From assembly GCA_951406725.2 (NCBI GenBank), contig OX597815.1, positions 140,926,001-140,990,000 on the forward strand: a stretch of DNA of 64,000 nucleotides, read 5' to 3'. The position numbers and the translations under genes were made by a program. How positions within the stretch are numbered: position 1 is the first letter of the stretch; each line of letters starts with the position of its first letter. This DNA is from Octopus vulgaris. Lineage: Eukaryota. Shown here one piece after another: positions 2,061 through 14,671 of this stretch. The notes below the pieces were generated by a model, which searched no databases, was not told the DNA's origin, and was given only the letters and a program-made list of their open reading frames with translations.

Positions 2061-2557
2061 AAAAAGATTTTATTATAAACACATGGCAAGGACCTCTTTA
2101 TTAAACGAAAACAATATATTGATATTATTTAATATCATCCGAAAATCTTCAATTCAATTTTTAAAAGCATTACCATTATCATACTATATATTAATTGCTT
2201 AATTCAATTATACAACTTAATTCTATATAAAATCCAATAGCTAAAATTATCTAATTGACTTACATCTAAATATAATGACTATAATAGTGTTTTGACGAAT
2301 CTTTTGATTATTTTCATAAAATTTGAATATCCTCACGTATAGGATCGGATTCAATTCTCAAGGTATGTGTATGTAAATTTTTCTAATATTACATCCAGAG
2401 GACCTCAACACACTGATCGTGAATTCACGATATTTTCATTTCTATATTTGATGACATATAACTTGTATGATATATTTCAAACTTTTGTGTACCGATGTAT
2501 ATATATATAAAATAATATGTGTATATCTCTATGTAAATATGTTTATATATATATATA

Positions 2558-2706
2558 CAACTATGAGAGAGAATCCACTATGAGGACGCTCTTACGCTAG
2601 ATATAGATCCGCAAAGGGACTCAACCACTAAGAATTGTTCTCAAGAAATAAGTCTACACACCAAGAATGTAAGAGCGTCCACATAGTGGATTCTCTCTCA
2701 TAGTTG
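2558..2706. repeat. 38-bp inverted repeat with 73-bp loop
   Basis: 2558-2595 is the reverse complement of 2669-2706 with one mismatch. The left arm abuts a (TA)n tract. Confidence 0.95.
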
Positions 2707-3134
2707 GGTATTAATAATATTTACTGAATCTCAGTCTTTTATACGTTTGACTACTGGTGTTTAAATTGATGTTATCCAATTTTTTCACCCTCATTTTGAC
2801 TTTAAGTATATATATATATATATATATATATATATATGCGTGTATATGTAGGATGGGCCTCTCCACTGCCAGTATATGGGTATGTGGGTGTATATTCCAA
2901 TATACAGGCACAGTAGAATATTTGGACTTGTACTTATATGAGTATGCCTGCGTACTTGTGTGTATATGAATATCTATATTTGTATTAGCGTAGGCACCTC
3001 TTTTTAACTATCCGTATGTGGGTGTATGCATATCAATGTATATGGTCGTGCATATATGTGTATGAATGTGAATCTATATATAATTGTATGTGTATATACG
3101 TATATATATATATATATGTATATATATGTATCTA

Positions 3135-3303
3135 TATTTCGTCTGTCGTTACGTTCTGAGTTCAAATTCCGTCGAGGTTGACTTTGCTTTTCATCCTATC
3201 AGGGTCGATAAAATAAGTACCAGTTTCGTACTGGGGTCGATCTAATCGGCTAGCCCCCTCCCCAAGAATTTCGTGCTTTGTGCCTAGAGTAGAAGAGAAT
3301 ATT
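3135..3303 (+). mobile_element. SINE family 1 (Deu/Nin-like core), 5'-truncated
   Basis: gttctgagttcaaattcc...tttcatcctatcagggtcgataaaataagtaccag aligns to the copies at 39074 and 57361. Confidence 0.88.
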
Positions 3304-4629
3304 GAAAATTTAGACAACGTTAAATCGAAAATATCAAAGTTACAGCATGAGTGAGTAGCTGATATTTTTTAGTTCCTTTCACCGTCTGTCTTTAATCTTT
3401 CTTTCTATGTCAGCAACTACCATATATATATTTTCTCATACTACAAATATAAGTACGCATATAACTGCAACGTACATACACACATACATACACATATATA
3501 TATATACGTATATGCCACAGGAACACACACACACACGCATACACACGCACACATTCAGTATTTGCTATTAAAATTCCGCATTTAAAATAGCTGTCTGTAA
3601 AACCTTATGACGTAGTTTCAGATAACTAAAGAGAGAGAAAATGATTTGTTCTTTCATTGCCTGATTTGCTTTTAAATATTTATGTTTGTAACATAACTGG
3701 GCTTTATGAGTTACAAATTATCTTAACTATTATAATGTTGAATATATTTCAAATTTGAAAGGTGGTAGCAATCTCGTTTGGAGAATATAATTGCTGGATA
3801 TAAAACCTAAATGTGTAACAAAGAATGAAAGATAAACTGGTTTCTGTGTTTCATGATATTTGAAACCATACCTTCTGAATTTCTGAATTTTTTTTCCTTT
3901 AACTGAAAAGTTATATCGGGAAATATTAACTATTTATTTCGCGTGAAATATCATGGTTTCCCTATATTGTTTCAGAGTCAATTAAAGCACTTTAAATATT
4001 TATAATTCGACAAGCGTATATACAAATTGATATGTGAAATAATGAATAAAATATCTTATTTCTGTTTTCCGAAAACCTTTCTCGATTCTCAAATATTTTC
4101 ATTTGTGTAAGATACTTATATCGCAAACAATTCTTGCATGATAATTTTATTCCAGCTTCCTACTTGACCTCAAACATGTTGCATCATATATCTATGTAAC
4201 GTACGCTGGCTATCCAAAATCCATTTTAGATGCTGGTGCAATGGGAAACACTACTGAGAAGAGGATGTACCATAGCAGATTTTCCATGCTTAATAACTCG
4301 GAGAGCACGATGGAAAATGTATTGCATCAACCAAAACACGAATAAATAAAATGAACCTAGAGTTTACTAATACAATGTACAAGCAAGCTCTAGCCCCCAT
4401 TGTGCAAACAATAGCTTGTAAGTTTCTTGGACTATCAACCCCTTTCAAATTACACTGTGACTCTTACATAAGAGATACTTCAAGCTCATTCAACTGCTGA
4501 AATCAAAATGATCTGAATGAAAATAACTTATACGGGTATCAAATAGTGACTTCTGAATTGGAATATTTCGTTTTACATGTAGAAAAGCCAAAATGATTTG
4601 ATGAATTGGTTCTGAGGAAAATATTCATA

Positions 4630-11908: not shown

Positions 11909-12859
11909 TATTAAGAAAATAATGTCACGTAGATCCACCAAACGGACTACTCCAAACTTTACATATGGAAATACAAAAACGTTGTCCTTGAAATCGCGTA
12001 TGGAACGCCTAGTGAGGAGTATGCGCAAGACGAATTCATCCCAAACAGGCTAACCCAAATTGTCAGCATGGACTAGACTTCAAGACAATATTTTAGAATC
12101 ATTATTCGGAATTCAGGAAGATTGGGGAAATAACACCATGTTATCAGCTATATCTGGCAAATAAGTGTCAGCAACGTTGCTTTGAGGTCGCTCGAAAGAA
12201 ATTCATATCAGAATAGATCAAAGCATTGCAGCATAGCGAAAAGGAATAACAAACCACTCATCCTGTTAAATCCAAGTGCCACAGTAGCTACGTGAATTCC
12301 AGAACTGAATATCCACCATATTTGATCATAACGACACGTTTGTCTACTTGTCCACGTGAACAGACTCAAATCCTTTTGTCTATTAATCAAGAAAATCGCT
12401 CCTTTTGTTCACTAAACCAATTAACCAGCCTAGTAAAAGCAACTCGTCTACTTTCTCAAACCATCTCTGATATCACCCCATCACACAGACACACACACAG
12501 ACAACCACACACAGACACACAGAAAAACTCACAAACATACATACACACACACAAACGCACGCATATACATGTATTTCTCTATTAGATATAGTAATCTGAG
12601 CCTGAAGTAACCAGGCTAGAAGACTGCAAGTCGCATGCAACCGAATCAAAGTGCTTAAAATATTTATGCATTCACATATATTCACGCGCATACACCTACA
12701 CACCTCTGCACACACGGAAATAGATAGATAGATGAAAATAGATATGGCTGTATCTATCATTACCTATATACTCTACTTCTCCATAACTTAGTATCCTTCT
12801 TTATCAGATTTATGATTTAGTGACGATATATATATATATATATATATATATATATATGT

Positions 12860-14059
12860 ATAAGCCAGCCCCATGCTCAATTCGTCCTGTCGAAAGACCC
12901 TTGTCCTACGTCCTGGTTTTGTTTTGTTGTTTATTTTTTATACTTTATTTTTACCGTTATTGTTTTTACGTTTTTGTATTCTTATTGTTGTCACGTATTC
13001 TGTATTTTTGTTCGTGTACTTCGTTCGTTTTCCGTCCTCGTGTTGTATACATTCGAAGCTTTCTTCCAGGGGATCTAATGCACTTGGCTTAGATTTCCCG
13101 TGGCGGGCTGCCCATATCGGAGCAATCTCAAGATTAATCAGCCGAAATTGCTAAGATGATCTGGTTCTTGACTGATGACTGAGGGCTTCGAATGTCCCGT
13201 CCTGTGGTTCTTGTGTCGTCTCTGTGGCGTTTCATGTTCTTGTCCATGTCTGTAATTATTTTTACTGTTTACCTATATAATCGGCGGCTACGTATCCACA
13301 ATTGTCCTTATACGATAAGTATATTTTTTTCTCAAGCATTGATACGACTCTTAATCTTTCTTTCTCTCTCTCTCTCCTCCCTTATTCCCCCTCCTTTCTT
13401 TCCCTCTCCATCCGTCCCCCCCCCCCTTCTACGTTTCTCTATCTCTCTCACCTCCAGCCCCCTCGATCTGTCTCTTTCTTCTCCTCCCTCGTCCACCTTC
13501 TCTCTCTTTTCATCTGTCCCTTTCTCTTGTCTTTTGTTCTCACGTGACCGCTGACCGCTGTTGAGCGCTCTTTTCGTTCCAGCAGCCGTTGAAGCAACAC
13601 GTACTTGTTCGTCTCCCTGTGGCCATAAGGCACAACTTCATAAGCCAGCCCCATGCTCAATTCGTCCTGTCGAAAGACCCTTGTCCTACGTCCTGGTTTT
13701 GTTTTGTTGTTTATTTTTTATACTTTATTTTTACCGTTATTGTTTTTACGTTTTTGTATTCTTATTGTTGTCACGTATTCTGTATTTTTGTTCGTGTACT
13801 TCGTTCGTTTTCCGTCCTCGTGTTGTATACATTCGAAGCTTTCTTCCAGGGGATCTAATGCACTTGGCTTAGATTTCCCGTGGCGGGCTGCCCATATCGG
13901 AGCAATCTCAAGATTAATCAGCCGAAATTGCTAAGATGATCTGGTTCTTGACTGATGACTGAGGGCTTCGAATGTCCCGTCCTGTGGTTCTTGTGTCGTC
14001 TCTGTGGCGTTTCATGTTCTTGTCCATGTCTGTAATTATTTTTACTGTTTACCTATATA
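12860..14059. mobile_element. Non-coding element: 1.5 tandem copies of a 780-bp unit (identical 420-bp direct repeats) inserted in (TA)n
   Basis: 12860-13279 equals 13640-14059 by line-by-line comparison. The 360-bp spacer is pyrimidine-rich and (TA)n lies on both flanks. No TG..CA termini and no credible ORF. Confidence 0.85.
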
Positions 14060-14414
14060 TATATATATATATATATATATATATATATATATCGACAGAC
14101 TCGAGCCCCGACTGCTGTATTCTTGGGATATTCTTTTTTTGTTTTTAAAATTGCAACGAAGTTATGCTCGCATTCTTCTATTAAAAATCAGCAAGAAACA
14201 CCTGTAATTAACATCGTCTGTTATTATTCATTTGATATATATATATATATATATATATATATATATATATATATATATATATATGAAGCAAAATAATTGA
14301 GATTCAGATAAATTAAGTACTTGAGTTGCGGCACCAAAATTTAGTGCGGAATTATCCGTACAGTTTCAAAAAAGGTGAATTAAGTTCAAACAAATAACAG
14401 GATATCTACTGGTG

Positions 14415-14502
14415 ATGCAGTACGATCGTTTCAAGCGACTCCATTTAATTGAATAATGCAATCATTACATCAATTTAAATGCAGAGCTGCCCTCAGCTGC
14501 AT
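14415..14502 (-). ncRNA. Type I hammerhead motif with palindromic stem III loop, in a ~330-bp insert (14285-14614) between (TA)n tracts
   Basis: Minus: augcag-CUGAGGG-[long imperfect stem II]-GAAAC-gauc-GUA-cugcau. Perfect 6-bp stem I, GUA cleavage triplet and GAUC palindrome. One core change (A9G). Confidence 0.75.
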
Positions 14503-14671
14503 AAAGAAATGTATACAGCATGGGTATTGTCTGTCTTTTTACCCTCTTAGAGGATTTAGGTAAAATTATACAAATGTGTTCGACTGATTAAATAAATTAT
14601 ATTTAATTAATTTTATATATATATATATATATATATATATATATATATATATATATATATATATATATATA

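Follow-up and report, generated by a model that had tools for sequence, protein, structure and literature searches.

A predicted split-core hammerhead ribozyme in a young tandem element inserted at (TA)n runs of the Octopus vulgaris genome

Element F and its surroundings

We analyzed a 64,000-nucleotide stretch of the Octopus vulgaris genome (assembly GCA_951406725.2, contig OX597815.1, positions 140,926,001 to 140,990,000), hereafter the window, in which we examined eight inserts, designated A to H, in a region crowded with (TA)n runs. Element F (12861..14053, plus strand) consists of 1.53 head-to-tail copies of a 780-bp non-coding unit, is bordered by (TA)n on both sides and has a fixed 3′ end at 14053. 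Each unit is predicted to contain one hammerhead ribozyme (HHR), whose core is laid out in four pieces, X-S-G-C. A first-pass annotation made from the sequence had described dissimilar non-coding inserts beside (TA)n, and both the inserts and the runs are present in the window, but one of the inserts, E, is coding. Six of the eight (A, C, E, F, G and H) were queried against the whole 2.80-Gb genome, while B and D were compared with 1.6 Mb of collected loci. The hammerhead cores were located with custom descriptors rather than Rfam, which gave no hammerhead match in the window at E≤5 and none at the gathering score in eight loci. A general repeat search of the window was dominated by microsatellites.

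The tandem of 1.5 units noted in the first pass is borne out in F, where the two 417-bp copies differ at 0/417 places. Among the 40 best-scored candidates, copies of the family are 93-100% identical, and the 38-nt ribozyme stretch has 243 exact matches in the genome. The 3′ ends meet (TA)4 or more in 31 of 34 distinct cases, as compared to an expectation of 1.2% per position, and the exact TA junctions of F are therefore strong evidence. All genomic copies end exactly at a TATATA inside the unit (13274..13279, plus strand), and we infer that this patch is a candidate for priming on nicked (TA)n. The 5′ ends, on the other hand, are scattered all round the unit: 37 insertions, from loci chosen by long or exact matches in which short copies are under-represented, span 0.27 to 5.53 units. 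TA is also found on the 5′ side in 24 of these 37, about two-thirds (counted by eye). At one insertion (L003, G000:C7:42919286-42923061), ~40 nt of unique sequence together with TA is duplicated on the two flanks; most others show no such duplication.

Units of the same insertion differ by 0.56 bases, as compared to 3.9 bases between insertions, and 30 array variants are common to all units of an array while 16 are not. Such near-identity within arrays fits the copying of each array from one monomer. F combines the fixed 3′ end, 5′ truncation, tandem copies and (TA)n target of derivatives of Penelope-like elements (PLEs) with the retrozyme feature of non-coding tandem units bearing one predicted HHR each, in arrays of up to 5.5 units. 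The F unit is covered by contigs from runs guessed to be RNA, which show neither joints nor an accumulation of ends and were counted as evidence neither way. Folding of the whole unit, with pseudoknots excluded, was uninformative (z 0.52).

A predicted hammerhead with its core split in two

A scan of all six block orders identified the hammerhead of F in the order S-G-C, with 0 matches in ten shuffled windows. The first copy (13106..13178, plus strand) comprises X at 13106-13110, S at 13121-13133, G at 13139-13152 and C at 13166-13178. X forms the 5′ strand of stem II, the predicted cut falls after 13127, and a further helix joins the X-S and G-C linkers. The second copy (13886..13958, plus strand) has its predicted cut after 13907. 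The core, consisting of CUGANGA, GAAA, A15.1-U16.1, H17 and G10.1-C11.1, is complete in F and in 55 of 55 copies, partly by construction of the search. The first-pass annotation had missed the form of this predicted ribozyme: rather than a minimal type I hammerhead, it is a non-circularly permuted, split-core one, and descriptor scans revealed no type I HHR motif in the F unit. A GAAU hairpin further downstream in F was considered as a possible minimal type I core and rejected, as it has no partner for stem I or stem III.

Patterns of the G and C blocks have 6,575 and 5,367 matches in the genome, while the reversed patterns have 0. The copies belong to three lineages, two of them with >5,000 pattern matches each and the third located at the ends of Naiad elements. 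A possible fourth S-G-C lineage (L211:1337, plus strand) carries GCCC before GAAA; its X is not present, perhaps through truncation. Four helices covary in the three lineages. In stems I and III, 2-4 pair types occur at most positions, with the first three pairs of each stem and the core being required by the search. Stem II pairs poorly with the strand after CUGANGA, and a strand located 10-18 nt upstream of block S pairs instead. This X strand reads GGCUG in the lineage of F, GAAGG in the second lineage and GACAC in the Naiad type, so that its letters differ in each lineage while all begin with G10.1-C11.1. When partners of the strand before GAAA were sought in equal search windows with no partner motif assumed, an upstream partner with at least 5 Watson-Crick pairs was detected in 51 of 61 distinct copies (28/34, 16/19 and 7/8 by lineage), as compared to 0/61 downstream and 0/61 in a further-upstream control.

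The helix between the X-S and G-C linkers averages 4.9 pairs, against 3.9 when linkers are combined across lineages and 3.7 after shuffling. It reaches at least 5 pairs in 28 of 55 copies and is modest in F itself. Given that stem II is closed by the upstream strand and that the linker helix is present, the RNA corresponds to a type SGC hammerhead opened between A9 and G10.1. F accordingly lacks the unbroken block C of type SGC, in which the stem II strand follows within 1-2 nt after CUGANGA.

A footprint of 5′ ends at the predicted cut

A sample of 60 copies was picked by their G and C blocks alone. Twenty of the 60 start 5-16 nt before G12, which is at or just after the cut, and several start exactly there. 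Of the remaining 40, only 2 start within the 12 nt that follow (P=0.001) and 4 within the following 60 nt. This pile-up is the pattern that reverse transcription of cleaved RNA would leave, with stalling of the reverse transcriptase (RT) at the knot as the alternative.

The layout at Naiad ends and a candidate driver

A 24-nt motif of the published Naiad_Ovul consensus has 156 matches in the genome, and the end of the consensus displays the X-S-G-C layout (by eye). Its authors flagged Naiad_Ovul as HHR_half_core (PMC8557442). Five of 30 Naiad RT loci carry the layout downstream on the same strand. End homology to an autonomous PLE is present for the Naiad-type lineage, while none was found for the lineage of F in the collected loci. 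Among six names checked in the supplement of PMC8557442, in fragments of neighbouring records, there was no clear second Naiad example. Two loci with motif pairs ~3 kb apart were considered as full elements, but proved to be nested insertions of long interspersed nuclear elements (LINEs).

The genome also harbors an intact, young PLE family of the Neptune/Nematis type with two open reading frames (L303-L311, e.g. G000:C18:76999000-77007000, minus strand). It encodes RT, a CX4CXXC linker and, at the C-terminus, a GIY-YIG domain in 753-aa frames, and ends in (TA)n; we regard it as a candidate helper for F. By eye, a type I HHR whose core is of the U3/A8 kind seems to lie in its 3′ untranslated region.

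Type I families and the remaining inserts

The other inserts are mostly members of type I HHR families. Element C (8354..8533, minus strand) is a 5′-truncated family member in which a minimal type I HHR lies at 8454-8480, and the 3′ end of the family is fixed, preceding (TA)n; the core of the element is near-complete, with U4C, stem I is weakened in the window copy, and the family copies found by genome search are 93-96% identical. The type I HHR of element H (14285..14612, minus strand) combines a long stem II with a palindromic short stem III. In the window copy A9 is changed to G, and the 5′ part is inverted, as it is in many relatives. Element A (2558..2806, plus strand) derives from a ~430-nt tandem family, of which it represents the 3′ end, and its own 5′ segment is inverted. 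The type I HHR of this family is located outside the window copy, which lacks the CUGANGA strand. The fold-back that the first pass had described as terminal does exist (2558-2705), but as the inverted 5′ segment of a longer family rather than a terminal structure. Element A was also considered as a miniature inverted-repeat transposable element and rejected, as the inversion point varies among 12 loci, several have no inversion and one is tandem. Element G (14093..14234, plus strand) belongs to an older type I HHR family, as a decayed copy from which the CUGANGA strand is deleted; one relative, L182, keeps the full type I motif. A minus-strand coding sequence was rejected for G, since no convincing frame was found and the type I HHR of the family lies on the plus strand.

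Insert E (9751..9912, minus strand) is a decayed fragment of a Penelope-like RT gene without a ribozyme. Its relatives read GLYRDD...FLDVTLDL, resembling the published Hydra-1_Obim (by eye), and a twister-like RNA was ruled out on this identification as an RT fragment. Decayed Penelope-like coding remnants are also found at window positions 1200-2150 and at L272:9102-9692, and a Penelope-like coding piece just upstream of the window reads GLYRDD. The type I HHR-like motif of insert D (8702..8736, minus strand) carries two core changes; the TA run at 8534-8559 is ~140 nt away, and the core is not retained in the two relatives seen in the 1.6 Mb of loci. Insert B (5690..5745, minus strand), beside (TATC)n, has the stem II/GAAAC half of the motif without CUGANGA. 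No relatives of B were found in the 1.6 Mb of loci, and it is perhaps a truncated copy.

The type I core and stems are present in the families of C, H, A and G, but H, A and G are represented in the window by defective copies. The first-pass count of four hammerhead-type cores is not supported for working cores among these inserts. Minimal type I HHRs are known from the pseudo-long terminal repeats of PLEs, reportedly through work of Lunse et al. in 2017. C, H, A and G resemble these in their palindromic short stem III, a feature that suits cleavage as a dimer. F differs from them in its 6-bp stems I and III, and on paper needs no dimer.

TA runs are very common, (TA)5 or longer occurring 13 times per 10 kb of the genome, and mere closeness to TA is for this reason weak evidence. 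HHR-type matches exceed chance. In 1 Mb of evenly spaced genome samples there were 28 HHR-type matches, 7 of them tandem units of one locus, as compared to 0 in five shuffles, and 17 of the 28 had (TA)4 within 300 nt downstream, as compared to 23% of random places. These two results indicate that a family-rich, TA-linked HHR population is real. The claim of a family-rich population of HHR-bearing, TA-associated elements of the Penelope type is thus supported, though such elements are largely known in kind. The parallel drawn with Dong proved unnecessary: Dong/R4 is a LINE that encodes a restriction-like endonuclease (RLE) and targets (TAA)n, while the inserts here are non-coding or PLE-derived and sited in (TA)n. 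Overall, the observations of the first-pass annotation were partly confirmed and its interpretation partly supported.

Within the 1.6 Mb of loci we also encountered ~30 distinct type I HHR families with a palindromic short stem III and a stem II of 10 to 63 nt. At locus L081, a 359-bp unit bearing a canonical-looking type I HHR recurs in tandem arrays and makes up a classic non-LTR retrozyme (LTR, long terminal repeat). A high-scoring type III-order descriptor match at L179:2504 (minus strand) lies in AT-rich inverted sequence and may be due to chance. Elsewhere in the window, positions 252-1165 hold a separate microsatellite-linked set of inserts between (TTA)n runs, and a perfect inverted repeat of ~25 nt surrounds a TA run at 35386-35471. 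A dispersed repeat of ~185 bp, which we take to be SINE-like (resembling short interspersed nuclear elements), occurs at 3135-3300, 39123-39489 and 57408-57915, also in tandem.

Proposed mechanism and rival explanations

The region is probably a pile of (TA)n insertions, mostly of known type I families, and one of these insertions, F, is a young tandem element with a 780-nt unit and a predicted X-S-G-C hammerhead, which makes it likely to be a retrozyme. With somewhat less assurance, we favor a reading in which the four-piece hammerhead is active, and serves as the ribozyme of Naiad-type retroelements and of their young non-coding parasites, which would multiply by rolling-circle reverse transcription, primed on (TA)n, of an RNA that has cut itself and been circularised. 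Transcripts of the tandem units would cleave themselves once per unit, and the monomer would likely be circularised, as shown for other retrozymes. A Penelope-like RT/GIY-YIG enzyme supplied in trans would then nick (TA)n, and reverse transcription would start at the UAUAUA of the unit, 146 nt downstream of the cut. On a linear RNA the RT would stop at the cut end; on the circle it would continue round, yielding n.x-mers. Priming at UAUAUA is the weakest of these steps, because an anole PLE starts at a non-homologous site.

Several points weigh against the proposed explanation. A break between A9 and G10.1 has no precedent in the literature that we searched, and Eckert et al. 2023 (PMC10085705) assume that block C cannot be interrupted. 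In the lineage of F, 26 of 34 copies have a 4-pair downstream partner after a 5-nt insert, its duplex scoring -4.8 versus -7.3 kcal/mol. The 61 copies compared for stem II represent three lineages only, not 61 events, and loci L189-L248 comprise the first 30 matches of each pattern along a single contig and include a few pairs that stem from the same insertion. The homogeneity of the arrays also fits uniform parent arrays or gene conversion. The one PLE studied in vitro has an RT start site non-homologous to its target, and HHR cleavage is dispensable (PMC11167929); 8 of 9 Xenopus retrozymes did not cleave. The Naiad matches are broken, with a longest open frame of 292 aa, while F is young. 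No autonomous element with F's own end was found in the collected loci, and the Neptune/Nematis-type family has no end sequence in common with F.

It is quite improbable that F is an ordinary type SGC hammerhead, whose stem II would form with the strand after CUGANGA across the 5-nt insert and in which X would be an alternative or inhibitory pairing. The downstream partner of F's lineage and the proven cleavage of SGC ribozymes (PMC10085705) speak for this assignment, but one sub-family of the same lineage lacks that partner, and among the 27 copies of the other two lineages not one attains 4 Watson-Crick pairs with it (0/27). Moreover, the I-II helix directly follows X, where SGC places it. 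Nearly as improbable is a fold that is no longer catalytic and acts as a protein-binding or RT-blocking structure, the 5′ ends piling up from RT stalling at the knot. The spread of these ends over 12 nt rather than one base, the unprecedented split core and the transposition of PAc without HHR cleavage (PMC11167929) would agree with such a structure. However, the pile-up stops at the predicted cut, with several copies starting exactly there, and N7 and H17 vary as in active HHRs, H17 having been limited to A, C and U by the search.

The identity of the driver leaves more room for doubt, though we still think it unlikely that F owes its mobility to an element outside the PLEs, for instance a Hero-type RLE retrotransposon, or that its arrays arise from repeated template jumps on linear RNA. 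The decay of the Naiads in this genome, while F is young, would agree with such a driver. Against it, the fixed end without poly(A), the TA target and the tandem and inverted copies match PLE habits (PMC8557442), the layout is linked to the Naiad RT in this genome, and no Hero-like words were found in the collected loci, a weak test. This explanation concerns only the driver and is compatible with the ribozyme reading.

Implications

Much of the wider TA-linked HHR system is already known, and the new part is the split-core layout of F. Our literature searches, which ran outside subscription journals, Repbase reports and bioRxiv supplements, returned no description of the split layout, nor of a knotted hammerhead in an animal element. 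If the reading of F as an active split-core hammerhead is correct, its layout falls outside the six published permutations and would be the first knotted hammerhead in an animal genome. A hammerhead core would then work without the covalent A9-G10.1 link, which the published permutation scheme excludes, and F supplies a 75-nt RNA for testing the requirement for this link. The predicted ribozyme would also fill the lack of HHRs reported for Naiads, overturning the statement that they spread without HHRs, and would suggest that type I descriptors overlook thousands of ribozymes in animal genomes. Furthermore, the formation of PLE tandem copies could be studied cleanly in this young family, given its near-identical members and exact TA junctions.

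Comparison with known systems

F most closely parallels three known systems. Type SGC is a non-circular permutation with an I-II helix, known from metatranscriptomes only and from no genomes of known organisms (Eckert et al. 2023, PMC10085705). F resembles the type-SGC ribozymes (HRIMA-1 and variants) in the S-G-C order, the short S-to-G linker, the full core and a helix that links stems I and II at their far sides. It differs in that block C is split, the 5′ strand of stem II being placed upstream of block S, and in that its layout occurs in thousands of copies in an animal genome, whereas SGC is known from metatranscriptomes only (PMC10085705). Natural single-base insertions in the hammerhead core are known.

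Non-LTR retrozymes are PLE derivatives (Cervera and de la Pena 2020, PMC7229834; Li et al. bioRxiv 10.64898/2026.07.22.740005), and F shares with them the non-coding tandem units, one HHR per unit, dispersed copies and the link to PLE ends. Its 780 bp fall within the 51-972 bp reported for these elements. However, non-LTR retrozymes are defined by a type I HHR, which F does not have, while C, H, A and G fit the known kind; F would therefore escape retrozyme searches.

Naiad and Hydra elements of octopus prefer (TA)n, and Naiads are reported to be without canonical HHRs, the cephalopod Naiads being remnants (Craig et al. 2021, PMC8557442). F is like the Naiad PLEs in its (TA)n preference, in its tandem and inverted copies and in the X-S-G-C layout of Naiad_Ovul. 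Whereas Naiads are autonomous and coding, F is non-coding and shares with Naiad_Ovul the layout but little sequence.

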